Shown in pieces: positions 10,720-32,419 of a stretch of DNA of 34,788 nucleotides (position 1 is its first letter; each line of letters opens with the position of its first letter). Both the position numbers and the translations under genes were made by a program. The notes under the pieces are model-generated. The model was not told where the DNA came from and did not search any database. It saw nothing but the letters and a program-made list of their open reading frames with translations. Source of the stretch: Candidatus Woesearchaeota archaeon (GTDB lineage: Archaea > Nanobdellota > Nanobdellia > Pacearchaeales > GW2011-AR1); contig CAYIPM010000001.1 of the NCBI GenBank assembly GCA_964365195.1, positions 1-34,788 on the forward strand. The letters run 5' to 3'.

Positions 10720-10929
10720 ATGTCAAAAATTGACGAGGTTATAGAAGGCATTAAAGATATTCTTAAAAAAGATGCTCGTGGATTGACTATTCAGGAATTA
10801 TCTGAAAAAATAAAAGTTTCCCGCATTACTGCCGCAATGGCGCTCATGAAACTTGATGGCATGGGTGTTATCGACATTCGCACTATTGGAAATTGTAAAT
10901 TGCATTATTTGAAGAGGAAGGGAGCATGA
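10720..10929 (+). CDS. Small winged-helix DNA-binding protein
   Basis: 69 aa from the first ATG (the track ORF starts at a GTG at 10669). LTIQELSEKIKVSRITAAMALMKLDGMGVI looks like an HTH. 4-nt overlap with the next gene. Confidence 0.55.
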   Translation: MSKIDEVIEGIKDILKKDARGLTIQELSEKIKVSRITAAMALMKLDGMGVIDIRTIGNCKLHYLKRKGA

Positions 10930-11486
10930 TAGAAAAATTATTTACATCAAAAAACAGAGTGAAAATTCTCGAGTTTTTTTTGTTTAGAGAAAAAGAGAGT
11001 TATATTCGAGAAGTATCACGACAATTAAAAATAACCAGCAGTGCCGTAAAAAAAGAAATTGATAATCTTATTGCTATAGGAATTTTAAAAAATGATAAAG
11101 GAACGATAACACTTAATACTTACTGCAATTATCTCGAAGATTTGAAAAATATTTTTATAAAAACAGACTTTCTTTTGTATCCTTTACAAGAAGCTTTTAA
11201 GAATGTTACCGCAGATTATGTTTTTCTCTTTGGAAGCTTTGCACGCGGAGATTATAATGAACAAAGTGACGTTGACGTTATGGTTATAGGAGAAATATCT
11301 TCATTTGATGTTTATAAAAAAATAAAACCTTTTGAGGATATCCTGAAGCGAGATATTAATCCTGTTGTTTGGACAATTAATAATCTCAAAAAAGAGAAAA
11401 AAAGTGGTTTTATTCGGGATATTTTCAAAAAGGGGATTATTATGATACGAGGTGATAAAAATGAACTTGCAAAAATTATTAGATGA
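10926..11486 (+). CDS. wHTH-fused minimal nucleotidyltransferase (MNT-type antitoxin-like)
   Basis: N-terminal wHTH (RVKILEFFL..SYIREVSRQLKITSSAV) plus the NTase motif LFGSFARGDYNEQSDVDVMV. Confidence 0.85.
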   Translation: MIEKLFTSKNRVKILEFFLFREKESYIREVSRQLKITSSAVKKEIDNLIAIGILKNDKGTITLNTYCNYLEDLKNIFIKTDFLLYPLQEAFKNVTADYVFLFGSFARGDYNEQSDVDVMVIGEISSFDVYKKIKPFEDILKRDINPVVWTINNLKKEKKSGFIRDIFKKGIIMIRGDKNELAKIIR

Positions 11487-11895
11487 AGGGAAAATTGAAA
11501 AAGTTGAACAGAAAGAATTCTCTTCTGATTCTATTGAGAAGAGCCTTGATTTTGCAAAAAAAGGATTAGAAATGGAACGATATGATGAAGTAATGCCGAT
11601 AGCGTATAACTCCATTTTTAGAATCAGCAATAAACTGATGAACCATTTATGGTATCGTGCAATCGGAAAAGAACATCATAAGAATGTATTTGAATTTTTA
11701 GTGCAAGCGGGTTTTGACAAAGAATTAGCGGGTTATTTTGATACAGTACGGAAAAAAAGAAATGATTTCATTTATCGAGATATTGAGAAAACATCAAGAG
11801 AAGAAGCCCAAGAAATTCTTTCCAAAGCAAAACTATTCGTTCACAAAATAAGAACATTTGTTCAAAAAAAGAGAACAGGAGAAAAAGTGAAATAA
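11452..11895 (+). CDS. HEPN-domain protein (partner of the MNT)
   Basis: 147-aa all-helical protein immediately downstream of, and overlapping, an NTase gene. VRKKRNDFIYRD lies where the HEPN R-x(4-6)-H motif sits, but no His is present. Confidence 0.55.
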   Translation: MIKMNLQKLLDEGKIEKVEQKEFSSDSIEKSLDFAKKGLEMERYDEVMPIAYNSIFRISNKLMNHLWYRAIGKEHHKNVFEFLVQAGFDKELAGYFDTVRKKRNDFIYRDIEKTSREEAQEILSKAKLFVHKIRTFVQKKRTGEKVK

Positions 11896-11988
11896 TATGA
11901 CAAGACAAGAGGTAAAACATATGCCCGAGCAGAAGAGAAATGAAATCAAAAAAGGAGATGTCTCTTATTTGAGACTTAAGTCTATACA

Positions 11989-12489
11989 ATGAGACAGGAT
12001 AACTATCAGAAGATGCTTGAGGTTTTTTATGAATATCCTACTCGCAGATTTACTATTCGTGAGATTGAAAAATTAACTAAAATACCACGAGCAACTGTTC
12101 ATAAGCAATTAATTAATCTTAAAAAAGAAAAAATGATAACCGTCGAGAATCAAGCTGAAACTACCCTTATTTTCAAAATAAAGAAAATTAATTATTATCT
12201 AGAAAAGATTGTTGCGTCTGGATTGCTTGAAGAGCTTATTGAAAAATTAAATCCTTCTTGTATCATTCTTTTTGGAAGTGTGCGAAAAGGAGAATCAGTC
12301 AAGGAAAGTGATATAGATTTGTTTGTAGAAAGTTTTGTGAAAAAAGAATTTTCTTTAAAAAAATTTGAGGGAATTTTGAAACATCCTATCCAGCTTCTTG
12401 TAAATTCAGATATGCACGATTTAGATAAAGAACTGTTGAATAATGTTGTGAATGGCATTAAACTTTTTGGGAGCTTTAAAATAAAATGA
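11989..12489 (+). CDS. wHTH-fused minimal nucleotidyltransferase
   Basis: RRFTIREIEKLTKIPRATVHKQLINL wHTH plus LFGSVRKGESVKESDIDLFV. Confidence 0.85.
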   Translation: MRQDNYQKMLEVFYEYPTRRFTIREIEKLTKIPRATVHKQLINLKKEKMITVENQAETTLIFKIKKINYYLEKIVASGLLEELIEKLNPSCIILFGSVRKGESVKESDIDLFVESFVKKEFSLKKFEGILKHPIQLLVNSDMHDLDKELLNNVVNGIKLFGSFKIK

Positions 12490-12914
12490 TTATCACAGAA
12501 ATAATGCATTGGAGGGAATGTGAAAAGGATTTTATACGAAGAGTAGAAATTGATGCTGAAAGAATAGAGTCACTCAAGAAAAAGGCATTATTACGACTTA
12601 CGCGCGCACGAAATACAACGGTGAATACTGAAACAATATCTTTTGTTGTTGAAGATTATTATGAGGTGATTAAAGAGCTTCTTATTGGATATTTATTAAA
12701 AAATGGTTTACGATCTAAAAATCATCAGTGTCTGATAAGTTTTTTTTATAAAAATAATCCTCAGTATGAAAAAGAAAGCTATCTTATTTCTCAGATGTCC
12801 TATTTTCGCAATAGACTTAGTTATTATGGGGAAGATATTCCGATGGATTTTTATCAAAAGAATAAAAAGGAGTTTGAACATATAATTTCATTACTGGTGA
12901 AATTAATTAGTTAA
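12486..12914 (+). CDS. HEPN-like protein (partner of the MNT)
   Basis: 142-aa helical protein with ATGA overlap to the NTase gene. FRNRLSYYGEDI lies at the HEPN motif position. Confidence 0.5.
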   Translation: MIITEIMHWRECEKDFIRRVEIDAERIESLKKKALLRLTRARNTTVNTETISFVVEDYYEVIKELLIGYLLKNGLRSKNHQCLISFFYKNNPQYEKESYLISQMSYFRNRLSYYGEDIPMDFYQKNKKEFEHIISLLVKLIS

Positions 12915-13736: not shown

Positions 13737-14290
13737 TCGGCACACTTGATAAAGATGTAATAAAAGTATTGACGGTTTTCGGAGTTTCTCCTGGATCTCA
13801 TCTTAAACGTACGCTTATACAGGAGAAAACCAACATTAATAACATTATTCTTAACAAAACTTTATTCAAGCTTGTTAATCTTACTATTTTAAAGAAAGAA
13901 AAAAATTATTATTATCTTAATTTTGAAGAAAAAAGTAGTAAAACTCTTTTAGCCCTTATTCAAGCGCATTATACAAAATTAAAACATCTTCCTTTGCGGG
14001 AATATTTTATTATTTTAGACATTTATTTTGAACTTTTATCTTTTGCAAATATTTCGGCAGTTTATTTATTTGGCAGTTACGCAAAACTTATATTTACTGA
14101 GAAATCTGATATTGATATTGCAATTATTACTGAGGAATCTGATAAAAAGGCACTCAAATCTTCTCTGCATACACTAGAAAAGAGACATAACAAAACTATT
14201 GAATTACATTTTTTTGGCAAAGATTTTTATAAAAATAAACGAGATCCTTTAGTTAAGGACGTAGTAACACATGGAGTGCAATTGATTTAA
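13733..14290 (+). CDS. wHTH-fused minimal nucleotidyltransferase
   Basis: LFGSYAKLIFTEKSDIDIAII NTase motif with an N-terminal wHTH-like region. Confidence 0.7.
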   Translation: MIGTLDKDVIKVLTVFGVSPGSHLKRTLIQEKTNINNIILNKTLFKLVNLTILKKEKNYYYLNFEEKSSKTLLALIQAHYTKLKHLPLREYFIILDIYFELLSFANISAVYLFGSYAKLIFTEKSDIDIAIITEESDKKALKSSLHTLEKRHNKTIELHFFGKDFYKNKRDPLVKDVVTHGVQLI

Positions 14291-14319: not shown

Positions 14320-17300
14320 ATGAAAAAAAAAGAAGCGAGTGATGTGGAGAAAAAAAAGAGACATGAACAATATAATTTGATAATGATTTTTTTAATTATC
14401 TTAGTTGGAGTTGTGGTTATTTTTGCTGCGTACACCATTTCAACATTCTCTTCAAGCGAATCAATCGATACCAACGTCACCCAAGAAAATAATTTTTCGC
14501 ATCTGACAATTAACAATGATGTTGCGCCTTACAATAGTTTAGTGTTGTATATGTCGTTTGATGAGAATTTTTCAAGATATGCAAATGTTTCATATGATTA
14601 TTCGGCGAATGGGAATGACGGAAGATTTATATTTAATAATGGAACGAGTAAATATAATTCGACTGGATTGTATGGAGGAATGGTTAGTTTTGATAATGAT
14701 GGAGATTATATTAATGTGAGTACTGCAAATAATTTAGATTTTGGATTATCTCCTTTTGCAATTAGTATGTGGGTATTAGCAGGTGATCCTACTGATAACT
14801 TAGACGGATTTCTTTCTAAAGATAATTATGCAGGAGGTACTACTTATGTTGGGTATCTCTTAAATATTCAAGCAGGTCCTCGTTGTAGTTTTGAAACGAG
14901 AAATATTACTGGTGGCGTTGGTCCTGATTCGAGGGTATTTAGCATAGCCACAATTTCAAGTAATGTCTGGACACATATCGTCGCTGTGAGAAATGCAACC
15001 TCTCCTGCAGCATTGCAAATTTTTGTCAACGGAGTGCTTGATAATTATACTATTGAATCGAGTGCAACAAATGTTACTAATAATGCGTCGCTTACATTAG
15101 GTGTTATTAATTCTTTCACACCCCTGCAATTCTTCAACGGTTCCATCGACGAAGTCATGATATTTAATTCTTCATTAAATTCTAGCGAGATATTAAAAAT
15201 ATATCAAAATCAATCTAGCAGATTTAAAAATCCTGGCAAGCAGGAATTAAAAGCATTTAATACGACGCTGACAGCTGGCTGGATTCGTGTGCAGGAAGAG
15301 GATCAGCAATTATTCAGCACTAATTTGACAAAACGAATTGGACAATGGAATGTTAGCAAAGGATACAAAGATTGGGATTTCACAGCGAATACGTATGGAA
15401 GTTTTGATGGGGTGAATGATTATGTGGATTTGGGAAATACTCTGCCCTTTGATTTTAATACTCCATTTACCATTTCTGCATGGATTAAGCATTCTATGAC
15501 TTCAAGTATTAATTTTATTAGTAAGCAAGAAAATTCTGGTAACTATAGAGGTTATGGATTAGGAACGGCTGTTAGTGGTAAATATGAGTTCTTTATTTAC
15601 AACAATGGAGGAATTACAGTTGATGCTTCTGCCAATCACAATGATGGCCAATGGCGCCATGTGTTATTTACATATTCGGGAAATAGTGATGCAAATGGAG
15701 TCACTTTTTATCTCGATGGCAACCCAGCCGCGTCTACCATCGTGACAAACACTTCTGTAGCTAGCATTCTAACTACGGCTTCATTGCAATTAAATGGTCG
15801 TGCCGGAGCGAATAATTTATTTGCTGGCTCCATAGACGAAGTCCGCATTTACAACCGAAGCTTGAATGCAACAGATATTTTAGAAATTAATGCATCGGGT
15901 AGAAGTGCAAATGCTTCAATAAATTCAACAGGGTTAGTTTTATGGATGCCATTTGCGGAAGATGGATATGTGAATGATAAGGTATTAGTTGCGGATAGAA
16001 GTGGATTAAATAATGATGGTGTGCGAAATAACGGAACAGATTATGGTGGGGAAAATTTAGTGAATGGCTCTTTAGTTTTGTATATGCATTTTGATAATAT
16101 CTCGACAGTAGGAGAGAATGATACGCTTGTTAAGGATTGGAGTGGGAGGGGGAATAATGGGACTGCTTTCAATGGTGTGCGGGTGAATACGACTGGAAAA
16201 TATGGGGGAGCGATGACGTTTGATGGGGTGGATGATTATGTGAATGTAACCCATAATAGTATATTTAATATTAATAATAGCATAACTCTTTCTGCATGGG
16301 TGAAAACCATTGATGGAACTAGTAATTATATTATAACAAAAAATGAGGATTCTTGGTTTCTCGCTATTGGTGCTGATGCTTCAACAACAAATAAGTTTTC
16401 ATTCTTTTTAACTCCTTTTTCTTTAGTGTGGTTAGGAAGTAGTTCTGATATAAATGATGGAATATGGCATCATGTTGTAGGGACATATAATGGTTCAGTT
16501 AAGAGTGTATTTGTTGATGGAATACAAGAAAATAGTACGAATATAACTGGGGCAATTGGTACAGGTGCATCTTCCGTACTAATAGGACATCGCCCTCTTT
16601 TAAGTGCTTATTTCAACGGCTCCATCGACGAAGTCATGATATTCAACCGTTCGCTTTCAGCATCGGAGATTACAAAATTGTATATAAAAGGTCGAGCAAA
16701 ATTCAACTATACTGATTATCAGCATACAAGCAATGAATATTTACGAGTAGATAAAGATTCAACGATGTGCATACTTGATTATAGATTTAATGCAACTAAT
16801 TATACTAATCCGTTTTATACGCCGTTATTGTTTACGAGTTCAGCAAACCCTTTGAATATCAGCGATGATACTATTTCACCAAGTGTTATAATAAATGCAC
16901 CAGCAAATGCAACTATAGGCACACGAAATATAACATTTAATATAACTGCAACAGATGGGGCTGTTGTTGATAATTGCACGTATTCCATAGATACTATTAT
17001 TAATGTTTCATTAACAAATTCAGTTGCAAATGATTATACTCATACCAATTCATCTTTAGGAGAAGGTTCTCATACAGCAAGATTCTATTGCGCAGATGCC
17101 TCAAATAATATAAATAACACAGAAACGAGAACTTTTTATGTTGATGCTCCGCCCTTAATTACTATTACATTTCCAACAAATAACTCTTTTTATAATTATA
17201 ATGTTTCAGTCATTAATTACACATACTCTGAAATTAATCCAGGCAGTTGTTGGTATTCTACTGATAAGGGATTTACTAATTCATCGACTGTTGCAATGGG

Positions 17301-20300
17301 AACAAATTTCTCTAGTGTTACATCATTAGTTGATGCAAATAATTGGACAGTGTATTGCAATGATAGTTCAAACAGATTAAACTCTACCATCGTTAGCTTT
17401 GTGAAAGATTTAACATTTCCTCAAATTGATTTTGATTCTCGAACACCTGCGAATGCAACTGTTACTCCCAATACGACGGTGATTGTGAATATTTCAATTG
17501 TTGAATTATATCCTGATGAAATAAAATATAATTGGAACGGAACAAATTTTACTTTGATGAATGATTCGCTTGTTCTGTTTATGAATATGGATAATCGCTC
17601 GTCGCTGGGGGAGAATGATACACTTGTTGCTGATGTGAGCGGGTATTGTTATGATAATGAGACGGAGATTTTGACACTTGAAGAAGTTGATTGTGGAGAT
17701 TATCTTGAAGAAATTGAGAATGGGAATTATTATGTTGATGATGAAAATATAATTATTGGGAAAAGAAATGAAAATTTAATACAAGATAAAAATTATGATG
17801 GAAGCATTGAGAATGAAAAAAAGAAAGTGGGTTCAAACAGAATAGTTAAACCCAACCGATTGATACACGATTATACTTATTGTAATGATAAGGAGTATTT
17901 AAATATTTCTGTTCATTTGAATGAAAACGTCGGGGTGGCAGAATGGTTATTACAACCGCTTGATACACGGTGCCCTTCGGGGTTTGTGGGTTCGATTCCC
18001 ACCCCTGACGGCTTGTTTGAAAATTCTCAAAAATGTTATATCAAATCATGGAACTATTTTGTTGAATTAGATGGCGATGAGAAAGTTATGACGCTTGATT
18101 CTTCGACGGGCGAGAAAGAATGGCAAGTGCCGACGGAAAGGCAGGAATTTGAAAATAATGGGGAGATGTATTCGATAAAAACTATTGATGAAGAGGGGAA
18201 GGAAGGGGAGTTAGTGGTGAGCGAGAAACATAGGGTTTATACTGCATCTGAAAGTTTTTTTAATTCTGTTGATACTTCTTTAGTTGAAATTCCAAAGCCA
18301 ATGTTAAATAATAAAACTTCATATGTCCATAATTTACAGCCTTTGGATACACACAATGCAATAAACTCTTCATCTTTTGAATGGTTTTTTAATAATTGTT
18401 TTGCCTTTGGTAATGAAACTTTATATTCTTCTAAAGGAACAAATGTTATTCTTTTAAAAATGAGTTGTACAAATGTATCAAATCTTTTTTCAGATAGTTT
18501 TGTTTTAGACAGTAATTCTTTCTTATGTCTTTCAAATTCTTCTTTAAGTTTCAAAGGTGCCAATAAATCAAGTTGGGAATTAAATACAATTTCTAAAATA
18601 TCTCCTTGTGAGATAAGTATTCGAAATAAAATGTTTGAATCCAGAACAACGGTAAGGGGCATCTATAATAATCCTCTTTTGACTAAATCATCATGCATTG
18701 ATTTTTTGACTTTTTCTGATAATTCATCAGCATCTTTTTGGGTAAATTGTGATTCTGATATAATCTCTTTAGCGAGTGTTAATTCCAGTTTATTTGAAAA
18801 TTCTTTGAGTGTTTTTGATAATGCTCGTTCAAATTCTTTCTTAAATACTTCGGGTATTTCTACTTTAATAGATATTTCAGCCATAGAAAATTCTATGAAT
18901 ACTGATTATAAAAAACTTTCTATCGAAGACTTCTCATTGCAGCCTGTTAGTGAAATGTATGAAGAGTTTACTAACAGTAAAGAAATTTATTTCTTGGATT
19001 CAGAAAATAATCCTGTTCGCGTTTCATCAATTGAAAAAATTCCATATTCAGGAAAAATGTATGATGTTGATGTAGAGAATGATATTGTTCTAGTAAGGAG
19101 AAATAATGGAGCTTCTAAAATAAATAATCAATTACTTAAAAATAAATCATCTCTTCTTGATATAAATCCTGTCATGATGGTCAAAATCTTCAAAAATAAT
19201 AGTATCACCTTTTACAGAAAAGAGAAGAACAAAACTTCCAATTTGAACTCTTTTAAAGTTACTCAAATCATGCCTAAGATTCTTGAAATGCATGATAGCA
19301 ATAATGTTCATTTCAGCAATTTGAGTTATCTTTTTTTGTACAGCGAAAAACAAAGGAAAGTCTTTCTTTTTGAGTTTTCTCAAGATGTCGTCAATTTTAG
19401 AAGTGTCTATCTTCATAATGAGTCACAGAATTTATTAAATTCATCTACTGTCATTGATTTGCCTGATAATTTTTTAGAAGATTTTAATTTTTCTACATAT
19501 TTTTCTTTTAATTCAAATTCATCAACAGGATACCAATCGATTTTATCACAGAATTCCTGGTCATCTAATGATAAAGTTCCTGATTGCATGAATTTTTCAA
19601 ATATAGACTGTTTCATTAATCTAATTACTGCTTTTGATAATAATTCAAAATCTAATTTTATGGAATTATCTGATTTAAGTAACATTTCTGCCATAAAAAA
19701 TGATAAGAGTAATGGTTATTTAAGTTTTTCTATTGGAGAGTTTAGTAATCTTATAAATAGTGGGGAAGAGGAGGCAAGCAAAAGAAAAGAAACTAACGCA
19801 GACGATAGTCATTTTGAAAAAGCAAGTTCAGAAGCTTTTGCTTCTGAAGAGACAGGAATTTGGAGCGGAAATAGCAATAATGGGACTGGGGTGAATGGAG
19901 TGAAGGTGAATACGACTGGAAGATATGGGGGAGCATTTACGTTTGATGGTAAGGATGATGTGATAAATACAACTTTATTATTTAATTCCACACAAGGAAC
20001 ATGGTCTGCATGGATTTCTGTTCCGAGTTTTACACTTGAAGGTGGATTTGGTAGACGTGTTTTGCATCAATCAGATAATGCAGGAAATCATGAAATCAAT
20101 TTAAATACTAATGATAATTCACGTGTACGATGGAGTGGTTATGGAACAAGTTATGTATGGAATTTTAACTCTAATGAAACGTTATCAACAAATACGTGGT
20201 ATCATATTGTAGGGACATATAACGGTAGCTATGCGGCTTTATATCTTAATGGACAATTATCTAATAGTTCAACACAAACTGGACCTGTTGGTGATGCAAA

Positions 20301-26300: not shown

Positions 26301-29300
26301 TAAATCTTTCTCACTACAACCGATACCAGATGTTTACAATGACTTTGAAAATGGCGAAGAAATTTATTTCTTGGATTCAGAAAATAATCCTGTTTTAGTT
26401 AAGAGCATTGAAAAAATTCCTTATTCAGGAAAAATATATGATGTTGATGTGAAGAATGATATTGTGCTGGTCCGCCGCGCGGACAGCGACGGGAATTCTG
26501 TTGCAGTGTGGAGCGGGAATAGTAATAATGGGACACTGATTCGAGCTGGAACTAATAAACCTGTTATAAATACTACCTTCTGTAAATATGGCAATTGCAT
26601 GACGTTTCATGACTTGAATGATTCATTGAATGCATCGACTGGAGTGGGGCTACTTTTAGGAAATGGCTCAACAAATTTTTCAATAAGTTTGTGGTATTAT
26701 GAAAGTGTTAATAATGAAAATAAAGGATTAGTGTGGTTTCGTCCAGCAAATCAAGATAGAAGTGTTTCACTTTTTAGACAATCAAATAAAGTAATTGCAA
26801 CTCTCAATGATTTAAGTGTAGTTATGAGATCAAATACGACGGTGACACAGAATCAGTGGTATCATGTTGTATTAACCTATGATGGCAGTGTTGCTTCTTT
26901 ATTTCTTCAAGGAGTCATTGATAATACTACTATATATTCTACTCCTGTTAATTTTTCAGGATCTAGTTTTATCGTGGGAACATATTATAGTTTAGTAGAT
27001 AGTAGTTCTTTCAACGGCTCTATCGATGAAGTTGGTGTTTGGAACAGAAGTCTTTCACGAGAAGAAATCAAACAACTCTATCAATCTCGCTTGAAAAAAT
27101 TGGTTTCGGCAAACGGCGGCGTGAATGACACGTACTTGCAGATGGTGAATTCTTCGACGGCTGGAAATTTCACGGTGAATTTGCGTTCAGATAACATGAG
27201 CTATTGGAATGTTGCTCTTAATCAAAGCGGGCTTGTATTGGGATTGCGGCAAAGTTATAATTATAATATGAGCGCGACAGATAGAGCAAACACCATAAAT
27301 AATTCTGGATTGCGCACGGTGTTTGGCAATTCTAAGCCAGAATTTATCAGTGTGGGTTATGTTGCTAATGATAGTGAGGGAGTTGATCCATCGACGATAA
27401 TTGTGGTGACAGTTAATGTAACTGATGTTGATAGTAATTTTGATACGGCGATTTTACAATGGAAAAATATGAGCCAGATCTGGACAAATGTGACAATGGT
27501 GAATATAACTGCAAAGGGAGTGTACACGATGGTGAATACAAGTTTTACCACACCTGCGTATGATACTAATGTTACGTTTCGAATTTTTGCGAATGACACC
27601 TTAGGTGATTCTAATTTTTCCCTTAATTATACTTTGAATAGCTCGTATGATTGCACCTGGGCCGCAACGGCGGATTTAGGCGCTATTGCCGGCTGGGACG
27701 AAAATAAACGCGTCGGAAATATTTCCATTAATAATACGGGAGATTCAGCGTTTGTAACTGCAAATTGTTCGCTTGATTTTCGTTTGAATTATAATTTGGC
27801 AGAAGGAAGAATTTATTTTAATCAAGATTATGTGAAACCGTCGAATACTATCACGCTGTCTGCAAAACAAAATACGAGCATTGTGGTGAATGCAAGCTTT
27901 TTATCAGAAATTAAAGAAGAAAGTGTTAACATTACTGTTGATGAATTTCGCTCACGATCCAATATGACTGAAATTAATACAACATTGACTCTTGTTTCAA
28001 ATCAGGCAGGGCCGTATTTATATCAGAAAATAGCTGCAGCACCGACATCGATTGATTTACAATCAGGCAATAATTTCAGCTTGCAAGGATACATTCGAAA
28101 TTTAATGGGAACACTGACGGCAAATGTAACTAATAGCGCGTATAACGTTAGTTTTAATTGGAGTGTTCCTAGTGGCTTTACCAATTTATCCGGCGAGCTT
28201 GAAGTGAGTTTAGTTAATATGACCAATAACAGTTTAATTTATAATAATGTGAATGTGAGTTTTAGTAGTCTTGCGTCGATGACTGATGGTGTTAAAACAT
28301 TTTATTTGTATGCACAGGGATATAATATCACTGGCGGAGCAATTAAAGATGCGTTGAATAATACATTATTAACGCAGCAAATGAATATTACTTTCCTTTG
28401 CTATGCCACGAGTGATTCTGTTTGTGTTACGGATTGCGGCAGCACGCAGGATCCTGATTGCTCTGCTGCGGGTTCATCGTCGAGCTCGTCTTCGGGCAGC
28501 GGCGGCGGAGGGGGCAGCTCTACGAAAAAAGAGGAAAAATCAGAAGCAACTTTTGAATTATTGCGTGGAAAAAATCAGGAATTTATTTTACCCATCACTA
28601 ATAAACTTACTAGCTCAAAAGAAAACATTGTTATCAGTGTGAGCGGGCTTAATGCGCAGTACATACAAATAATTCCTGATCATCTTGACTTTATTGCATC
28701 GGGCAGCTCGCGTGATGTTCGGGTCAAAATCACTGCGCCGGATTATTTTGTTGCAGGCACCTATACATTGACATTTTTTATTAGCGGTGATTTAGTTTTT
28801 AACGGCAGCCGCACGCAGTTTTCTGAACGCAAATTTGTGACTCTTTATGTAATTGAAATGTCGCGCGATGAAGCCGACGAGTTTTTAAGGAATGCTGAAA
28901 AATTAGTTGATGAAATGAAAAAAGCAGGCATGATTGTTGATAAAGCAGATGCATTATTTTCTGCAATAGAAGAAACTCATGCCGCAGTTAATTTTTTAGA
29001 GATGAAGAATCATTATGAACAACTCAAGGAAATTCACGACGCTGCATTTGCTTCTTTAAAAATTATCACCGATCTTAATGAAAAGATACAACAGGCAGAA
29101 AAACAGGGAATTGATGTAAGTGAAACTAAAAAATTATTTTATGTTGCTCAGGCAGCGTATAGCCGCGGTGATTATATCCTCGCGATTAAGCAGCTTAAAG
29201 AAGCGCAATTAAGCTATGCCCTTGAAACAAAAGGAGAATTTAATGTTTTGTATGCCATCAAAAATAATCCGGGAAAATCTGCCGCAGGTTTTCTTTTAGC

Positions 29301-29787
29301 TTTATTAATTGGATTTGGCTCTTCTTTTGCAGTGCGACTGCATATCTATAAATCCAAATTAAAATATTTAAGAGAAGAAGAAAAATTATTGCTTGGTCTG
29401 ATGCGCGCGGTGCAGATTGAATGTTTCCAGAATAATAAAATGTCAATGGAAGAATATGATCTCGCGATGAATCATTATGAATTAAAATTACGGGAGACTA
29501 TCGAGGATAAAATTAGAATTGAGACACAACTTGCGAGCTTGTTTAAAATAGGCGGCAGAAAAAAAGCGCTGTTTGAAGAACGAAAGCGGCTTATTGAGAT
29601 GATTAAGAAAGCGCAGAGTGATTATCTTAAAGAAGGAAGCCTTGAAACGCGCGTGTATGAAAATATGCTGAAATCGTATTCTTCCCGCTTGTCTGAAGTT
29701 GAAGAACACATTGCGACACTGGACGCCTCTGAAGCGCTGGAAGAAAATAAATTTATTAAAAAAATCTTAGCGAGGTTTGGATTATGA
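14320..29787 (+). CDS. Giant (5155 aa) surface protein: N-terminal signal anchor, 8 LamG/Laminin_G_3-like repeats, Ig-like modules, Ser/Gly linker, coiled coil, C-terminal TM anchor; interrupted by three intein-like elements
   Basis: Single open frame. The motif (N/A)(G/A)(S/T)(I/M)DEVxhaN(R/S/K)(S/T)h, where h = hydrophobic and a = aromatic (Y/F/W), recurs 8 times. The domain-start motif D-x-SG-x-G-NNGT...FDG.DDY recurs. N-x-S/T sequons are very frequent. Ser/Gly linker at 28471..28521. TM helix around 29281..29340. Confidence 0.85.
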   Translation: MKKKEASDVEKKKRHEQYNLIMIFLIILVGVVVIFAAYTISTFSSSESIDTNVTQENNFSHLTINNDVAPYNSLVLYMSFDENFSRYANVSYDYSANGNDGRFIFNNGTSKYNSTGLYGGMVSFDNDGDYINVSTANNLDFGLSPFAISMWVLAGDPTDNLDGFLSKDNYAGGTTYVGYLLNIQAGPRCSFETRNITGGVGPDSRVFSIATISSNVWTHIVAVRNATSPAALQIFVNGVLDNYTIESSATNVTNNASLTLGVINSFTPLQFFNGSIDEVMIFNSSLNSSEILKIYQNQSSRFKNPGKQELKAFNTTLTAGWIRVQEEDQQLFSTNLTKRIGQWNVSKGYKDWDFTANTYGSFDGVNDYVDLGNTLPFDFNTPFTISAWIKHSMTSSINFISKQENSGNYRGYGLGTAVSGKYEFFIYNNGGITVDASANHNDGQWRHVLFTYSGNSDANGVTFYLDGNPAASTIVTNTSVASILTTASLQLNGRAGANNLFAGSIDEVRIYNRSLNATDILEINASGRSANASINSTGLVLWMPFAEDGYVNDKVLVADRSGLNNDGVRNNGTDYGGENLVNGSLVLYMHFDNISTVGENDTLVKDWSGRGNNGTAFNGVRVNTTGKYGGAMTFDGVDDYVNVTHNSIFNINNSITLSAWVKTIDGTSNYIITKNEDSWFLAIGADASTTNKFSFFLTPFSLVWLGSSSDINDGIWHHVVGTYNGSVKSVFVDGIQENSTNITGAIGTGASSVLIGHRPLLSAYFNGSIDEVMIFNRSLSASEITKLYIKGRAKFNYTDYQHTSNEYLRVDKDSTMCILDYRFNATNYTNPFYTPLLFTSSANPLNISDDTISPSVIINAPANATIGTRNITFNITATDGAVVDNCTYSIDTIINVSLTNSVANDYTHTNSSLGEGSHTARFYCADASNNINNTETRTFYVDAPPLITITFPTNNSFYNYNVSVINYTYSEINPGSCWYSTDKGFTNSSTVAMGTNFSSVTSLVDANNWTVYCNDSSNRLNSTIVSFVKDLTFPQIDFDSRTPANATVTPNTTVIVNISIVELYPDEIKYNWNGTNFTLMNDSLVLFMNMDNRSSLGENDTLVADVSGYCYDNETEILTLEEVDCGDYLEEIENGNYYVDDENIIIGKRNENLIQDKNYDGSIENEKKKVGSNRIVKPNRLIHDYTYCNDKEYLNISVHLNENVGVAEWLLQPLDTRCPSGFVGSIPTPDGLFENSQKCYIKSWNYFVELDGDEKVMTLDSSTGEKEWQVPTERQEFENNGEMYSIKTIDEEGKEGELVVSEKHRVYTASESFFNSVDTSLVEIPKPMLNNKTSYVHNLQPLDTHNAINSSSFEWFFNNCFAFGNETLYSSKGTNVILLKMSCTNVSNLFSDSFVLDSNSFLCLSNSSLSFKGANKSSWELNTISKISPCEISIRNKMFESRTTVRGIYNNPLLTKSSCIDFLTFSDNSSASFWVNCDSDIISLASVNSSLFENSLSVFDNARSNSFLNTSGISTLIDISAIENSMNTDYKKLSIEDFSLQPVSEMYEEFTNSKEIYFLDSENNPVRVSSIEKIPYSGKMYDVDVENDIVLVRRNNGASKINNQLLKNKSSLLDINPVMMVKIFKNNSITFYRKEKNKTSNLNSFKVTQIMPKILEMHDSNNVHFSNLSYLFLYSEKQRKVFLFEFSQDVVNFRSVYLHNESQNLLNSSTVIDLPDNFLEDFNFSTYFSFNSNSSTGYQSILSQNSWSSNDKVPDCMNFSNIDCFINLITAFDNNSKSNFMELSDLSNISAIKNDKSNGYLSFSIGEFSNLINSGEEEASKRKETNADDSHFEKASSEAFASEETGIWSGNSNNGTGVNGVKVNTTGRYGGAFTFDGKDDVINTTLLFNSTQGTWSAWISVPSFTLEGGFGRRVLHQSDNAGNHEINLNTNDNSRVRWSGYGTSYVWNFNSNETLSTNTWYHIVGTYNGSYAALYLNGQLSNSSTQTGPVGDANRTVAIGRINFQVNGHFNGSIDEVQLWNKSLSSTEIYQLYASNLYKFNQTQWYLTVNQSKNTTNGLDNGTYTYYAYSKDNGGNANMTDVRTITSDTEAPNATLLTPVNNSFVTNGSQNFSANLTDTYGLKNATLNVYPSANNSWLEFDGVDDSVNMGTTGGNVSGNITISVWVFPAATQNDYARIISKENAGGPVNQGWGIEQDFNTINKYYFFWYGSAGGGSGSGSNITSTLVANKWNHFVITLSNSNVIQYVNGVQTNSSTGLGTMVQQPTASLLLGTWFGDTTRFWNGTMDEVRVYNRSINATEVLDIYRSGLLRNPTLNSTGLVSWWDFEQASGTILVDQVGLNNGTINGSTWRNFHRQFFSFASGTTSALVGTVLGLLEGTYNWFYQLFDMAGNIFTSSNFSVTIDTVYPLVSFDSRTPANATTTPNVSVTINISIVEQYLDELKYNWNGTNYTYMNDSLVLLMNFDNRSALGENDTLVADVSGYCYDNETEILTLEEVDCGDYLEEIENGNYYVDDENIIIGKRNENLIQDKNYFDRDQLKNNEKEKEVFDVTPKALLVMQDNVLTDYNNYEINNYINFSVDNHHAEDASEALLVMQQTDTLRLNGLSGSTPDWGDSALENSPTCYVEKWKYFNDLSGTEKVMTLNQKTGEQEWQLPKEKQEFENTGEMYSITTIDEEGNKGELVVSEKHRVYASEGIGIISNVSGNNLIRLPSNSDDFISFNSDSNAVIRSWVLSCGILNHTTENIFSFENFKAFEKCRSLVISTLCSDFENVANDPFESSFGLEIMSYPCSFKNFSSLNFTFSSRKNLTERELDIVTSFKNICGILQSSSNMSLCQRRIILENFIKSHSSPQHFQDLPDHDSGSLKSWSSSTDFTVCNNIGVNFDSHCIMNRQDLYKSFSLQPITAVYKDFENGEDIYFLTEDNTPVLITSIEKVPYSGKMYDVDVKNDIVLVRRADSDGEYGSAVWSGNSNNGTAINGVKVNTTDCKYGNCDTFDGINDYINSTVVSSNINNKTLSAWVKLAYLGQGGGGLVTVQTLDGNIFDSIVYNETGLGWGFGSNVYRRTAWSGLVETSTDWIHIAATYTNGSYVLYRNGIAIVTNTTLSVLNFNSSTAHVVIGRRHTTGGANTYLNASIDEVYVWNRTLSASEVYELYASNLYKFNQTQWYLTVNQSKNTSSGLDNGTYTYYAYSKDNGGNANMTDVRTITSDTEAPNATLLTPVNASFVTNGSQNFSANLTDNLGLKNATLYVYPSANNSWLEFDGVDDVINITRNETLEPTKNLTVSVWIRHTTNTRYVLSKHYDGGASSYAIDVADDNVQFYVRNGTGSSHFRNAISGTATNGNTWHHVVGTVNDSSVAIYVDSVLKASTAITGAIVYNSGNLSIGNFVDTPASFSFNGSIDEVRIYNRTLSSTEITEIYKSGLLRNASINNTGLVSWWDFEQATGTNLVDQVGLNNGTISGATWRNFHRQFFSFSSGTTSALVGTIFGLLDGAYNWFYQLFDYAGNIFTTSNFTTTIDTSAPQIDFVTPTLSNGSAANSDFLVNVTISEQYLSNISWYWNNTRFVYGENFSLVSPENISRGLVLLYNFDNESTYGENDTNVFDFSGYCYDNETEILTLEEVNCGDYLEEIENGDYYVDDGEIIIGKKNENLIQDKNYFDRNQLKNNEKEKATNAASMVTHNFTGYVSNNENKYLNFSFDKTAVGDDPVASVVMRRSNKPNLHGYPGSIPGWSESPTLDNLKNSENKCYIKSWKYFNELSGDEKVMTLDSSTGEKEWQVPTERQEFDEDKEMYEIVMEDANGEESNLVVSEKHRVYFSDFDNNIPFNPKIVNPISFPDSDCLAIMPEPKSTLIAFSGFPNEMYNTSASSSYSHDDLSDFPINSSIVSFYFLTYLNKKQLGQNRLSETALCMQHLDACCLLQESCQTFLSQEENLHLLVEQYKDCLAFPKYYPLGFSSQDDYCTYVSIVFQSVLSEHHSLKKQFSSDYCNKNELYKSFSLQPIPDVYNDFENGEEIYFLDSENNPVLVKSIEKIPYSGKIYDVDVKNDIVLVRRADSDGNSVAVWSGNSNNGTLIRAGTNKPVINTTFCKYGNCMTFHDLNDSLNASTGVGLLLGNGSTNFSISLWYYESVNNENKGLVWFRPANQDRSVSLFRQSNKVIATLNDLSVVMRSNTTVTQNQWYHVVLTYDGSVASLFLQGVIDNTTIYSTPVNFSGSSFIVGTYYSLVDSSSFNGSIDEVGVWNRSLSREEIKQLYQSRLKKLVSANGGVNDTYLQMVNSSTAGNFTVNLRSDNMSYWNVALNQSGLVLGLRQSYNYNMSATDRANTINNSGLRTVFGNSKPEFISVGYVANDSEGVDPSTIIVVTVNVTDVDSNFDTAILQWKNMSQIWTNVTMVNITAKGVYTMVNTSFTTPAYDTNVTFRIFANDTLGDSNFSLNYTLNSSYDCTWAATADLGAIAGWDENKRVGNISINNTGDSAFVTANCSLDFRLNYNLAEGRIYFNQDYVKPSNTITLSAKQNTSIVVNASFLSEIKEESVNITVDEFRSRSNMTEINTTLTLVSNQAGPYLYQKIAAAPTSIDLQSGNNFSLQGYIRNLMGTLTANVTNSAYNVSFNWSVPSGFTNLSGELEVSLVNMTNNSLIYNNVNVSFSSLASMTDGVKTFYLYAQGYNITGGAIKDALNNTLLTQQMNITFLCYATSDSVCVTDCGSTQDPDCSAAGSSSSSSSGSGGGGGSSTKKEEKSEATFELLRGKNQEFILPITNKLTSSKENIVISVSGLNAQYIQIIPDHLDFIASGSSRDVRVKITAPDYFVAGTYTLTFFISGDLVFNGSRTQFSERKFVTLYVIEMSRDEADEFLRNAEKLVDEMKKAGMIVDKADALFSAIEETHAAVNFLEMKNHYEQLKEIHDAAFASLKIITDLNEKIQQAEKQGIDVSETKKLFYVAQAAYSRGDYILAIKQLKEAQLSYALETKGEFNVLYAIKNNPGKSAAGFLLALLIGFGSSFAVRLHIYKSKLKYLREEEKLLLGLMRAVQIECFQNNKMSMEEYDLAMNHYELKLRETIEDKIRIETQLASLFKIGGRKKALFEERKRLIEMIKKAQSDYLKEGSLETRVYENMLKSYSSRLSEVEEHIATLDASEALEENKFIKKILARFGL
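17929..18010 (+). tRNA. tRNA-like cloverleaf 1 (82 nt, long variable arm, anticodon-loop TTGATAC), translated in frame within the intein
   Basis: Acceptor GTCGGGG/CCCTGAC. D arm GCAG-AATGGTTA-TTAC (weak). Anticodon arm ACCGC-TTGATAC-ACGGT. Variable arm GCCC-TTCG-GGGT-TT. T arm GTGGG-TTCGATT-CCCAC. Discriminator G. Confidence 0.55.
18237..18662 (-). CDS. PIN-domain toxin (VapC-like), antisense within intein 1
   Basis: MPLTVVLDSNILFRIL (N-terminal PIN Asp) and a later acidic DEEFIALC. 141 aa. Starts directly after the upstream small ORF. Its stop TAA is the complement of the sense GTT TAT of block B. Confidence 0.65.
   Translation of the reverse strand: MPLTVVLDSNILFRILISQGDILEIVFNSQLDLLAPLKLKEEFERHKKELLSKTKLSEKRFDTFVQLIFKRITFVPLEEYKVSLPKAKQLLKNHSKDEEFIALCVSKGCKLWTYEVLLFNIGFGISTKEVSTELKKLSDAV
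18663..18884 (-). CDS. Putative antitoxin (73 aa, helical, K/E-rich) of the PIN toxin
   Basis: Small ORF abutting the PIN start (0-nt gap). TATA-like element about 26 nt upstream. Confidence 0.5.
   Translation of the reverse strand: MAEISIKVEIPEVFKKEFERALSKTLKEFSNKLELTLAKEIISESQFTQKDADELSEKVKKSMHDDLVKRGLL
18906..18916 (-). promoter_or_regulatory. TATA-box-like element for antisense cassette A
   Basis: The minus strand reads GTTTTTTATAA, centred about 26 nt upstream of the ATG at 18884. Confidence 0.45.
19147..19416 (-). CDS. RelE/ParE-family toxin, antisense within intein 1
   Basis: ILRKLKKKD..QKKITQI...KNLRHDLSNFKRVQIGSFVLLFSVKGDTIIFEDFDHHDRIY follows the RelE/StbE pattern. 89 aa, with 4-nt overlap to the upstream ORF. 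Confidence 0.65.
   Translation of the reverse strand: MKIDTSKIDDILRKLKKKDFPLFFAVQKKITQIAEMNIIAIMHFKNLRHDLSNFKRVQIGSFVLLFSVKGDTIIFEDFDHHDRIYIKKR
19413..19694 (-). CDS. Putative antitoxin (93 aa) of the RelE-like toxin
   Basis: Translationally coupled (ATGA) to the RelE-like gene. TATA-like CTTAAATAA about 26 nt upstream. Confidence 0.45.
   Translation of the reverse strand: MAEMLLKSDNSIKLDFELLSKAVIRLMKQSIFEKFMQSGTLSLDDQEFCDKIDWYPVDEFELKEKYVEKLKSSKKLSGKSMTVDEFNKFCDSL
19716..19724 (-). promoter_or_regulatory. TATA-box-like element for antisense cassette B
   Basis: The minus strand reads CTTAAATAA, centred about 26 nt upstream of the ATG at 19694. Confidence 0.4.
22081..22162 (+). tRNA. tRNA-like cloverleaf 2 (82 nt; the best-formed copy)
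   Basis: Acceptor GCCTCAG/CTGGGGC (7 bp including one T-G). D arm GCAT-TGTTGGTA-ATGC. Anticodon arm GCAGA-CTGATAC-TCTGC. Variable arm GTCT-TAAC-GGAC-TT. T arm TCGGG-TTCGACT-CCCGA. Discriminator G. Confidence 0.6.
22392..22766 (-). CDS. DUF5615 (Mut7-C/PIN-like) toxin, antisense within intein 2
   Basis: From the internal ATG: MSNSRSVKFLRDENVKLRLEKFLKEHGYDI...VLITNDRHF, a typical DUF5615 pattern. The track ORF extends to 22814. Its stop again lies in the complement of block-B GTT TAT. Confidence 0.7.
   Translation of the reverse strand: MSNSRSVKFLRDENVKLRLEKFLKEHGYDIISKPKELSNGSLATFSKSEQRVLITNDRHFSNALKFSKEKIFSVVWLRIPQDKTQLLITAFESLLKEIKSSEFEGNLIKLFPDTFEIIPIPSEA
22744..22983 (-). CDS. DUF433 antitoxin-like protein, antisense within intein 2
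   Basis: INPYIVADSEICGGTPTFKGTRIMVWQILEMLRGGMALNEIFKDYPSLTKAHIAAALQYA matches the DUF433 consensus. Confidence 0.8.
   Translation of the reverse strand: MRVEINPYIVADSEICGGTPTFKGTRIMVWQILEMLRGGMALNEIFKDYPSLTKAHIAAALQYAADILKGSDNVQFPLR
23005..23015 (-). promoter_or_regulatory. TATA box for antisense cassette C
   Basis: The minus strand reads GATTTATATAA, centred about 26 nt upstream of the ATG at 22983. On the sense strand it encodes the conserved LYKS. Confidence 0.5.
25438..25519 (+). tRNA. tRNA-like cloverleaf 3 (82 nt; degenerate anticodon stem)
   Basis: Acceptor GATCCAG/CTGGAGC (6 of 7 bp). D arm GCAT-CAGTGGTA-ATGC. Anticodon arm CAGGT-CTAATAA-ACCGA (only 3 bp). Variable arm ACCT-TCAC-GGGT-AT. 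T arm CCGGG-TTCGATT-CCCGG. Confidence 0.5.
25764..25973 (-). CDS. DUF2283-like small protein (antitoxin-like), antisense within intein 3
   Basis: WEYDEEADVLYISFGKPEKAISVDLGSGIIARQSESGKLIGFTILG matches the DUF2283 pattern. Its stop lies in the complement of block-B GTT TAT. Confidence 0.7.
   Translation of the reverse strand: MEELIGKSDKSSWEYDEEADVLYISFGKPEKAISVDLGSGIIARQSESGKLIGFTILGLKGILLSKSLK
25961..26272 (-). CDS. Putative toxin (about 104 aa, family not recognised) coupled to the DUF2283-like gene
   Basis: From the ATG at 26272 (the track ORF starts at a GTG at 26314). LKHMYNNHPEM...ILETLNNPYIV...GFVLTAFY. 13-nt overlap with the downstream gene. TATA about 28 nt upstream. Confidence 0.4.
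   Translation of the reverse strand: MKIAFSVNGVPIRLTEKQLKHMYNNHPEMKSQEDNILETLNNPYIVQQGDVGSLLAIKKFDKTPVTNNKHLNVAYKELSQTDGFVLTAFYSSKLKNRKILWKN
26296..26306 (-). promoter_or_regulatory. TATA box for antisense cassette D
   Basis: The minus strand reads GATTTATATAA, centred about 28 nt upstream of the ATG at 26272. On the sense strand it encodes LYKS. Confidence 0.5.
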
Positions 29788-31241: not shown

Positions 31242-31577
31242 ATGAAAAGGGGCATGAATACAAAAGGATTTGAATTGGCAATGAGCACACTTGTCGCTCT
31301 TATTTTAGGAGTTTTAGTATTAGGTGTTCTTATTTTTGGCTTTAGTTATGGATGGGATGCATTTTGGGGAGATATTAAAGGATTTCTTGGCGGGCGCGAT
31401 AATGTGCAGCAGGTTTTAGATTCATGTGAACGCGCTTGTTTACAAGAACAGCAGTATGATTATTGTACTTTATTGCGAACTGTCATCGTCAATGAAAAAC
31501 AAATCAAGCCATCTCCGACATGCCAGAATTTATCAATACTTTATGATTTTAGCTGCTCGAAGGTGTCATGCAGGTAG
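31242..31577 (+). CDS. Cys-rich pilin-like protein (paralog of 8692..9063)
   Basis: MKRGMNTKGFELAMSTLVALILGVLVLGVLIFGF is a class III signal-like N-terminus. The C-terminal Cys pattern is shared with the 8692 gene. The track start at 31236 is a TTG. Confidence 0.7.
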   Translation: MKRGMNTKGFELAMSTLVALILGVLVLGVLIFGFSYGWDAFWGDIKGFLGGRDNVQQVLDSCERACLQEQQYDYCTLLRTVIVNEKQIKPSPTCQNLSILYDFSCSKVSCR

Positions 31578-32419
31578 GCACGATGATTTCGAATGAATCC
31601 TTTTTTTTAATTGCGGCTGGTTTTATTTGGATAATTGGAGCAATTTTACAAGATTTACGACGACGCGAAGTTGACAATATTTGGAATTTTTCGCTTATTG
31701 GCATTGTCCTTGCGTATCGATTGGCAGTCAGTGTTTTGAATAGCGAGCCGTGGTTTTTTATCAACGGTTTATTAGGATTATTTATTTTTGTCATTGTAGG
31801 AAATGTTTTTTACTACAGTCGGATTTTTGCAGGTGGAGATGCAAAATTACTTATTGCGCTCGGAATAATCTTACCTTTAAGTTTTGATTGGATGGTGAAT
31901 GCGAAAATTTTTGGCGCATTCATTGTTCTTTTTTTATTTGGCGGCTCCTTGTATGTCTTTATCTGGTCTTTAGTGCTGGCGGGCTTTCATCGACGAGCAT
32001 TTATGCGGGAATTTGTAAAACAAGCAAAGATGTATCGCTATTTTTTTCTGTATAGCTTTGTTTTCTTTGCAATTTGCATCGGCTTTTCATTTTATTTTTT
32101 TGTAGCACTTATTTTTGGAATTGTTTTTTTGTTTTTTCCTGTTTTATTTGTTTTTGCAAAAGCGGTAGAAGAAAGCTGTCTTGTACGGGCAGTTTCTGTG
32201 GCAGCATTGACTGAAGGAGAATGGCTTTATGAAGATATTTTTGTGAACGGAAAAAAAATACGCGCAACCTGGGAAGGTGTCACAAAACGAGAATTATCTT
32301 TAATTAGGGAAAAATACCGACGGAAAATTTTAATCAAACAGGGAATACCATTTACTCCGGGATTTCTACTAGGATTTATAGGTCTTATTTATTTTGGCGC
32401 AAGATTTGGATGGATGTAG
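31568..32419 (+). CDS. A24-family prepilin/preflagellin peptidase (PibD/FlaK-like) with C-terminal extension
   Basis: Multi-TM protein. First Asp region ILQDLRRREVDN and the second catalytic motif FAGGDAKLLIALG (GxGDxKL-type). Confidence 0.75.
   Translation: MQVGTMISNESFFLIAAGFIWIIGAILQDLRRREVDNIWNFSLIGIVLAYRLAVSVLNSEPWFFINGLLGLFIFVIVGNVFYYSRIFAGGDAKLLIALGIILPLSFDWMVNAKIFGAFIVLFLFGGSLYVFIWSLVLAGFHRRAFMREFVKQAKMYRYFFLYSFVFFAICIGFSFYFFVALIFGIVFLFFPVLFVFAKAVEESCLVRAVSVAALTEGEWLYEDIFVNGKKIRATWEGVTKRELSLIREKYRRKILIKQGIPFTPGFLLGFIGLIYFGARFGWM

Follow-up and report, generated by a model that had tools for sequence, protein, structure and literature searches.

A contig of 34,788 nucleotides (nt) from a Candidatus Woesearchaeota archaeon (CAYIPM010000001.1, assembly GCA_964365195.1), the whole of which is termed the window here, carries a giant gene on its plus strand. 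The open reading frame (ORF) of 5,155 codons encodes a surface protein that has a signal/anchor sequence and Laminin_G_3 (LamG) repeats. Three intein-like inserts, termed E1, E2 and E3, interrupt this ORF, each at the same position of a LamG repeat. Enclosed in each insert is a cassette of two small genes that are read from the opposite strand and resemble toxin–antitoxin (TA) operons; E1 has two such cassettes. The inserts are probably inteins that carry self-promoted antisense operons at the site where other inteins have an endonuclease.

The three inserts have the same protein signatures. All begin with CYDNETEILT, contain SEKHRVY (a block-B-type S-x-x-H motif) and YDVDV.NDIVLVRR (block F), and end in WSGN followed by Ser. 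Excision in silico leaves the host sequence GENDTLVADVSGY/SNNGT.VNGVKVNTT, which agrees in length and register with the uninterrupted repeat GENDTLVKDWSGRGNNGTAFNGVRVNTT. Related elements were sought elsewhere. A scan of 185,579 genomes yielded three loci, in metagenome-assembled genomes (MAGs) of Candidatus Woesearchaeota and Nanoarchaeota, and a scan of metagenomes, a survey that the original prediction had proposed, yielded 33 more. Cargo sampled across the loci is of the PIN, PIN_2, DUF5615/Mut7-C and ParE families. Loci are cited below by L numbers. They all share one design: Hint blocks lie in a long ORF of the plus strand, and block B is followed at once by antisense ORFs. Family counts given below refer to about 31 non-redundant cassettes in these 36 related DPANN loci and, for block B codons, to 39 non-redundant elements. 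The C-lobe sequence was also searched against 1.84 billion representative proteins; only 133 proteins were found, many of them 3,000–7,300 amino acids (aa) long, and the intein family is thus small and specific to DPANN archaea.

Residues needed for identification as inteins are largely in place. The N-terminal nucleophile Cys1 opens all copies in the motif CYD[ND]ET.I[LM]T. The block B motif S[EP][KE]H[KR][VI]Y is present in 45 elements and aligns with DHPVY of the KlbA intein. The C-terminal Asn and Ser+1 (WSGN/S) are found in every window copy and in each mini-intein construct in which the C-terminus is present (six of nine). Such elements are inserted at three or more different host sites, each of which regains the host motif on excision; in L003, for example, a reading of the sequence shows restoration on removal of an insert at a different site. 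Full-length inserts gave no match in a Pfam scan. Constructs from which the cargo was deleted matched Hint (E=2e-4), Intein_splicing (E=4.5e-4; five of nine mini-constructs), Vint and Hint_2, and these Hint-superfamily models were their only coherent profile matches. A profile built from the constructs aligned from block B to block F with the Methanocaldococcus jannaschii KlbA mini-intein (PDB 2jmz, E=0.004). Because of the Hint-family matches, which are sub-threshold, and the KlbA match, the elements are treated here as divergent inteins without a homing endonuclease, and we infer that they splice.

Other inteins have the endonuclease domain between blocks B and F. Here this position, termed the main slot, holds a self-contained TA operon on the opposite strand, and in E1 the hairpin between blocks F and G, termed the second slot, houses another. 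The operon is packed tightly between the two Hint lobes: the promoter lies against the first C-lobe codons, into which it runs in E2 and E3, and the last gene reaches to block B. In all four window cassettes a toxin gene of a recognised family lies beside a small partner, and the two genes abut or overlap. Profile matches to PIN_2, DUF433 with DUF5615, DUF2283 and a ParE-like family bear out the earlier proposal that the antisense genes are real TA operons, and they are predicted to be of type II. The ParE-like match of the E1 second-slot toxin is weak, and its homologue in L033 has a ParE match with E=2.7e-5. The start of the E2 DUF5615 gene was set by comparison with homologues. For the first gene of E3 the mechanical ORF would begin at GTG 26314; ATG 26272 is the supported start, since 90 homologues are nearly all ∼103 aa in length.

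The plus-strand frame of the intein stays open throughout the cargo. Across the eight cargo genes there are no stop codons in this frame, versus 3–20 per gene in the other two plus-strand frames. Synonymous-codon resampling, based on the window's own codon usage, served as the null. The probability of finding no stops is 0.0038, 0.27, 0.016, 0.19, 0.135, 0.015, 0.62 and <0.0002 for the individual genes, with a product of <1e-13. The open sense frame is maintained by selection, and any triplet that would place a stop in the intein frame has been removed from the cargo codons. Purging of this strength implies read-through translation. A chance fusion of separate genes into one giant ORF was also considered; it is ruled out by the stop-purging statistics together with the flanking Hint blocks.

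An archaeal promoter consists of a purine-rich B recognition element (BRE) directly upstream of an 8-nt TATA box, which is centred ∼26–27 nt before the transcription start. Archaeal TATA boxes had been predicted on the antisense strand ahead of the first ATG of the cassettes, and at a like distance ahead of the RelE cassette of E1. Both predictions were borne out. The minus-strand motif AAAG(A/T)TTT(A/T)(A/T)ATAA, a BRE with its TATA box, lies 25–28 nt from the ATG in four of four window cassettes, the RelE cassette having GAAAAACTTAAATAA centred 25 nt before its ATG. The pattern AAANNTTTWWATAA has six matches in the window versus 0.72 expected, a number that none of 100 shuffles reaches, and three of the six are the main-slot promoters. 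A looser BRE/TATA expression has only two matches in ∼10 kb of extein sequence, with both strands counted.

BRE/TATA elements are found in 27 of the 31 family cassettes. The TATA box is centred 25–29 nt before the ATG in 18 cassettes, none of which has a Shine-Dalgarno (SD) sequence, and 31 nt before it in five. In five the distance is 47–57 nt, with an AGGA-type SD present in four. The window's ordinary genes carry GGAGG or GAGG 5–10 nt before the ATG. The enrichment of the motif, and the division between proximal TATA boxes without SD (18/18) and distal ones with SD (4/5), show that the elements are non-random and have the geometry of leaderless transcription, as had been proposed. This supports the view that the cassettes are really expressed, with antisense transcripts that are probably leaderless in most cases. 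Coordinates of the features are collected in Table 1.

Table 1. Positions of the host gene, the three intein-like elements and their component features in the window
Feature	Position	Strand	Remarks
Host gene	14320..29787	+	5,155-aa ORF; giant surface protein with LamG repeats; Laminin_G_3 E=1e-67
Intein-like element E1	17647..19872	+	742 aa; Cys1 (CYDNETEILT) to WSGN, then Ser; two antisense cassettes
Intein-like element E2	21769..23232	+	488 aa
Intein-like element E3	25144..26520	+	459 aa
E1 slot 0 insert	17677-18029	+	∼120-130 aa; between CYDNETEILT (block A) and KCY[IV]K.WKYF
E2 slot 0 insert	21799-22184	+	∼120-130 aa; same location
E3 slot 0 insert	25174-25547	+	∼120-130 aa; same location
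E1 tRNA-like gene	17929..18010	+	GAU anticodon, with a long variable arm; in slot 0, which separates block A from rest of N-lobe
E2 tRNA-like gene	22081..22162	+	anticodon GAU
E3 tRNA-like gene	25438..25519	+	anticodon AAU
E1 block B codons (SEKHRVY)	18220..18240	+	antisense TAA on 18237-18239
E2 block B codons (SEKHRVY)	22375..22395	+	antisense TAA on 22392-22394
E3 block B codons (SEKHRVY)	25747..25767	+	antisense TAA on 25764-25766
E1 toxin gene, PIN_2	18237..18662	-	141 aa; E=2.9e-21; ends at scaffold TAA
E1 putative antitoxin gene	18663..18884	-	73 aa; first of cassette; abuts PIN gene
E1 BRE/TATA AAAGTTTTTTATAA	18906..18919	-	centre 26 nt before ATG 18884; sense frame DYKKLS
E1 second-slot toxin gene, RelE/ParE-like	19147..19416	-	89 aa; ParE_toxin E=0.0097 (weak); own stop codon, not the scaffold's
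E1 second-slot putative antitoxin gene	19413..19694	-	93 aa; ATGA overlap with toxin gene
E1 second-slot BRE/TATA GAAAAACTTAAATAA	19716..19730	-	centre 25 nt before ATG 19694; sense frame GYLSFS
E2 toxin gene, DUF5615 / Mut7-C-like	22392..22766	-	124 aa from MSNS; E=8e-14; ends at scaffold TAA
E2 antitoxin gene, DUF433	22744..22983	-	79 aa; first of cassette; E=5.6e-23
E2 BRE/TATA AAAGATTTATATAA	23005..23018	-	centre 26 nt before ATG 22983; sense DLYKSFS; BRE overlaps first C-lobe codons
E3 DUF2283 gene	25764..25973	-	69 aa; E=8e-11; ends at scaffold TAA
E3 first gene	25961..26272	-	103 aa; weak match to PBECR3 / RelE-like nuclease family
E3 BRE/TATA AAAGATTTATATAA	26296..26309	-	centre 28 nt before ATG 26272; sense frame ELYKSFS
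E1 C-lobe	18931..19101	+	FSLQP to IVLVRR (block F)
E2 C-lobe	23017..23187	+	FSLQP to IVLVRR
E3 C-lobe	26308..26478	+	FSLQP to IVLVRR

The reading that we favour, and that we hold with moderate confidence, is that E1–E3 are three divergent, endonuclease-less inteins that carry self-promoted antisense TA operons, that their cargo is dual-coding, and that it is turned over by homologous recombination. The ribosome would translate through a linker of 220–640 residues rich in Ser, Asn and Phe, and the two lobes would then splice out, with restoration of the LamG motif. The conserved Hint lobes may act as homology arms for cargo turnover, with no dedicated cassette recombinase. Perhaps the TA module stabilises the intein against deletion by addiction, in place of homing as a means of persistence; alternatively, the intein could be a safe harbour for TA and tRNA genes.

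The original prediction pictured the intein scaffold as an integron-like platform with a fixed promoter and a fixed stop codon, between which promoterless TA ORFs are exchanged by a dedicated and precise mechanism. We regard this as unlikely, and the two fixed ends and the exchange can be weighed in turn. At the promoter end, the sense strand encodes DYKKLSIEDFSLQP in E1 and (D/E)LYKSFSLQP in E2 and E3. E2 and E3 have promoter and spacer in common to about the ATG, followed by unrelated cargo, and at least four promoter versions are known for DUF433 cargo; both would suit a promoter that stays in place. However, no BRE/TATA motif is found on either strand of the empty main slot of L034/L035 (KHKVYVSINGEDFDLIPIVEVY). 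The promoter is also seen with second-slot cassettes, with the tandem cassettes of L002 and L005, and with the intergenic cassettes of L037/L039, which have no Hint motifs nearby, and cassettes of the second slot or outside inteins have their own stop as well. A promoter that is part of the conserved Hint scaffold is ruled out by the empty slot and by the cassettes outside the main slot. It belongs to the cassette, because it is lacking where the slot is empty and travels to the second slot, tandem arrays and intergenic DNA.

At least three versions of the promoter can be distinguished in the sense frame, DYKKLS[VI]E, DYLSFS[IM] and [DE][LI]YKSF. The overlap between the BRE and the S-F-S codons that open the C-lobe is limited to the [DE][LI]YKSF version, that of E2 and E3. 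Cassettes with three genes (two of ribbon–helix–helix (RHH) type plus PIN) mostly have one promoter-leader type, with a distal TATA box that is usually followed by an SD. In these cassettes the promoter tracks the cargo, which counts against a fixed promoter.

The stop codon end gives a mixed result. As predicted, the last antisense gene of the main cassette ends in all three window elements at a TAA that is complementary to GT[T TA]T of KHRVY, exactly at the positions expected; the KHRVY codons (18226-18240, 22381-22395 and 25753-25767) end in GGGTTTAT in each. Across the family the V/I-Y codons of block B are NTT/NTC-TAY in 39 of 39 elements (GTT in 32, ATT in six, GTC in one), and GTTTAT is also present in elements whose slot is empty or filled by a tRNA-like gene. 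An in-frame antisense stop is thus available in every scaffold. In L021, where the codon pair is GTC TAT, the antisense stop is TAG instead of TAA, and a 135-aa PIN gene still ends there. Yet only about 18 of 31 cassettes (∼58%) use the scaffold stop. Ten (∼32%) stop 12–60 nt, or 4–20 codons, before it in the same frame, and three of 31 are in another frame. A DUF5615 homologue in L003 ends 15 nt short of the scaffold stop, and the C-terminal tails that do reach it vary in sequence and length. Thus the idea of a stop provided by the scaffold stands, and that of a fixed boundary does not. With ∼58% of cassettes using the TAA and ∼32% ending 4–20 codons earlier, it reads as a guaranteed backstop and not as a cassette boundary.

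The frame in which the cargo lies does not require the scaffold stop either. Opposite-strand stops in ordinary genes number 3.6 per 100 codons in the frame relation used near block B (relation 0) versus 5.3 and 7.1 in the others. The preferred relation is explained by its having the fewest opposite-strand stops to purge, and use of the scaffold stop as the reason for the preference was set aside for this simpler explanation.

With respect to exchange, nucleotide alignment of E1–E3 does reveal sharp breakpoints. Identity collapses immediately after GTTTAT, and on the other side of the cassette the similarity between E2 and E3 sets in at about the antisense ATG. Cargo is modular and has been shuffled. 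The RelE-type cassette has PIN cargo as its companion in the window and DUF433/DUF5615 cargo in L003, and window positions 18979-19734, which comprise the C-lobe and the RelE cassette, are 85% identical to L003 versus 65–74% in all other matches between these two contigs. L018 has the N-lobe and PIN cargo of L003 element 1 (78% identity) as far as the ATG, followed by the promoter and C-lobe of L003 element 2 (71%). L018 is thus a chimera of these two elements, and the same PIN cargo is joined to two different modules of promoter plus C-lobe, with the junction between ATG and TATA. The scaffold itself is a mosaic, with E1 and E2 100% identical over alignment columns 61-180 and E1 and E3 100% identical over columns 541-600.

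The abrupt change after GTTTAT, the L018 junction and the retention of the stop-forming codon in every element would be expected of precise exchange. The junctions differ between pairs, however. The left edge of the 85% block shared with L003 is inside the C-lobe, and elsewhere duplicated lobe remnants are seen, such as those of an earlier C-lobe start after some promoters (e.g. DFNLKG...DFSLQK in L003). No terminal inverted or direct repeats are common to the four window cassettes, and no recombinase ORF is present within the elements or among the 10 neighbouring proteins scanned, which are part of the ORFs of the window. Without shared terminal repeats or a recombinase among the neighbours checked, integron-like exchange is not indicated. 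The exchange of cassettes proposed earlier is upheld as regards modular cargo and sharp breakpoints, but not as regards mechanism. Taken as a whole, the evidence indicates that cargo probably turns over when paralogous inteins undergo homologous recombination or gene conversion, and occasionally through illegitimate joins.

E1 alone has a 20-nt inverted repeat, 80% complementary, that brackets its main cassette (18250-18269 and 18901-18920). One arm is the BRE/TATA, and the other is a BRE/TATA-like plus-strand string 10 nt after block B; no counterpart is seen in E2 or E3. In some inteins two TA cassettes lie in tandem in the main slot (L002 5753-7691, L005 6190-8128). They are separated by a fragment that joins a C-lobe start to an N-lobe end and has a second SEKHKVY, which looks like the product of unequal recombination between the pseudo-symmetric Hint halves. 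In L002, from a Woesearchaeota MAG, the main slot of another element (10892-12883, +) holds in-frame sense-strand SLFN_AlbA_2 and HATPase_c_4 domains (E=1e-21 and 3e-19); the main slot therefore also accepts protein domains encoded on the sense strand. A related protein is fused upstream in L001 (8267-9400, +).

A second alternative, which we consider improbable, is that the Hint domains no longer splice. The inserts would then remain as disordered loops, or the gene would be decaying; the frame would be kept open since truncation is harmful, and the TA operons would be ordinary nested genes. The departures from canonical inteins that are taken up below would fit such a state, as would relatives that are truncated soon after block F, e.g. 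L001, where LVRRMFLLN is followed by a stop. The conservation of Cys1, the block B His, the terminal Asn and Ser+1 argues for splicing, as do the restoration of host motifs at several sites and the strong stop purging, which implies that ribosomes read through. Finally, it is very improbable that the boundary coincidences are meaningless, with GTT and TAT merely the commonest codons (GTT is 60% of Val codons and TAT 89% of Tyr codons, and 69% of Val codons would give an antisense stop here), TATA strings common at 32% G+C, and ORFs running to the first stop in what is intrinsically the most stop-poor opposite frame, since T/C-ending V/I codons at block B (39/39) exceed the 0.69 background whereas two neighbouring Val positions do not (43/72), the BRE/TATA is 8-fold enriched at a fixed distance from the ATG in 4/4 window and 18/31 family cassettes, and the GTC variant of L021 still yields a used stop.

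Some observations count against the reading of E1–E3 as splicing, TA-bearing inteins with recombining cargo. The penultimate His of block G, which is typical of inteins although not universal, is absent, with Gly in its place (WSGN). All Hint and intein profile scores are below the curated gathering thresholds. An AlphaFold model of the full E3 insert, made from a three-sequence alignment, is unusable with a predicted local distance difference test (pLDDT) score of 32. The related loci are not phylogenetically independent. The invariance of the block B codons is greater than codon bias predicts, and an extra constraint may act at GTTTAT, in the form of selection for the stop or of a preferred junction. 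That the TA modules have an addiction role is pure conjecture.

A further difficulty concerns cargo of the E3 type, which was not found among the 36 intein loci. E3-type TA pairs with the same BRE/TATA occur in L037 (1503-2201) and L039 (3001-4014), where they are intergenic, lie between separately called genes, and are not within recognisable inteins. Although intergenic, both have zero stops in the same frame of the opposite strand, which the favoured reading explains only by assuming a recent departure from an intein. A free-standing homologue of the E3 pair from Verstraetearchaeota (L041), 50% identical, has 11 stops in that frame. The L037/L039 cassettes may be relics of intein life, or they may be a circulating, 'ORF-transparent' form of the cassette. 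This raises the question of whether a wider scenario applies, in which a DPANN intein lineage gave up homing and became a gene carrier, its Hint scaffold in giant surface-protein genes is a safe harbour where self-promoted and stop-purged cassettes (antisense TA operons and sense-strand tRNA-like genes) accumulate and are swapped from copy to copy, the TA modules are addictive and let the intein persist with no endonuclease, and L037/L039 represent the circulating form. We put this forward only tentatively and think it somewhat doubtful.

Each window element also has a further insertion point, termed slot 0, in the N-lobe. Some relatives have no insert there; L003 element 2, L019 and L020 read CYDNETQIMTENGWKYF. 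The left part of slot 0 is 100% identical between E1 and E2, and a variable middle holds a tRNA-like gene. Similar genes are present in L003, L005, L006, L008, L010, L011, L016, L019 and L020. They are translated as part of the ORF, the T-loop being read, for example, as ...GSIPTP.... All have a long variable arm and discriminator G and share one common body, with anticodons that are mostly GAU but also CAA, GAA, CGG and AAU. It is odd that anticodons of Ile, Leu, Phe and Pro should occur on a class II body. In 15 copies, compensatory double changes are found in 18 of 21 base pairs, and the cloverleaf is therefore under selection.

A palindromic TATA element lies ∼25–35 nt before each tRNA-like gene (window ∼22041-22054, L019 ∼6295, L020 ∼738, L016 6348-6586). 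It is read in the sense frame as NYINFS or KYLN[FI]S and has its purine-rich, BRE-like side on the minus strand; by sequence its direction would be ambiguous or bidirectional. Partial tRNA copies occur just upstream of the tRNA-like genes and are seen as a repeated ALLVMQ in the sense peptide. L006 and L010 are 98.6% identical over 6.8 kb, yet have two and three tRNA-like cassettes, respectively. Thus the copy number of these cassettes varies between close relatives.

Around the giant gene are many small genes without a Pfam match, and a KaiC-type ATPase and a type IV prepilin peptidase are among the neighbours (9621-10478, 31568-32419). The neighbourhood suggests a pilus or surface-structure locus. 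A BRE/TATA match is located at 14219-14232, 88 nt upstream of the ATG of the giant ORF.

The elements resemble mini-inteins and endonuclease inteins, among which the KlbA mini-intein (2jmz) is their closest match in sequence, in their in-frame location at a conserved host site and in Cys1, the block B His, block F, Asn and Ser+1. As in endonuclease inteins, extra material is tolerated in the B–F loop, the location of the homing endonuclease. They differ from known inteins in that no endonuclease is present and the loop DNA consists of independently promoted opposite-strand genes, with same-strand tRNA-like genes also carried. The polypeptide that the intein reads across the loop is a stop-purged by-product. 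The extra insertion slots after block A and between blocks F and G, and the missing penultimate His, are further differences.

Chromosomal (super)integrons of Vibrio contain small self-promoted TA operons in an exchangeable cargo array, which they are thought to stabilise against deletion. The likeness lies in self-promoted small TA operons amid exchangeable cargo. However, no integrase, attI or attC was found in the window elements or the neighbours checked, the platform is a protein-splicing element inside an ORF, and the cargo has to leave the other strand translatable. Group I and group II introns may carry free-standing ORFs, sometimes on the opposite strand, and here too a self-removing element in a host gene would be the vehicle for a separately expressed gene. 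The cargo in this case would be an addiction module and not a mobility enzyme. In addition, removal would be at the protein level, unlike that of introns, and the cargo DNA would therefore be translated in the host frame and must be dual-coding.

Compared with free-standing type II TA loci (PIN/VapC with RHH, DUF433–DUF5615, RelE/ParE and DUF2283 pairs), the families, the gene order and the abutting or overlapping genes are alike. Intein-resident copies differ in having no stops in one opposite-strand frame, in contrast to the Verstraetearchaeota homologue, and in having an AT-rich BRE/TATA in leaderless geometry. None of the systems compared combines protein-level excision with opposite-strand operons. 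A full-text literature search on inteins with TA, antisense, DPANN and endonuclease loss found no description of such an arrangement.

Inteins are usually viewed as selfish elements that persist via a homing endonuclease, or as decaying mini-inteins. In the present elements antisense dual coding is under selection and leaves hundreds of codons readable both ways, a clear case that can be quantified. They also show that in genome-reduced archaea a translated ORF can contain embedded promoters, start codons and stop codons. Genes of this kind will systematically be broken up or missed by gene callers, and around the cassettes of L037/L039 the genes were indeed called piecemeal. Being small, self-contained and few, the elements are amenable to direct tests of splicing, promoter activity and toxicity with cloned DNA. 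If the TA modules do stabilise the intein, this would be a second, previously unrecognised route to intein persistence and would link two classes of selfish elements.

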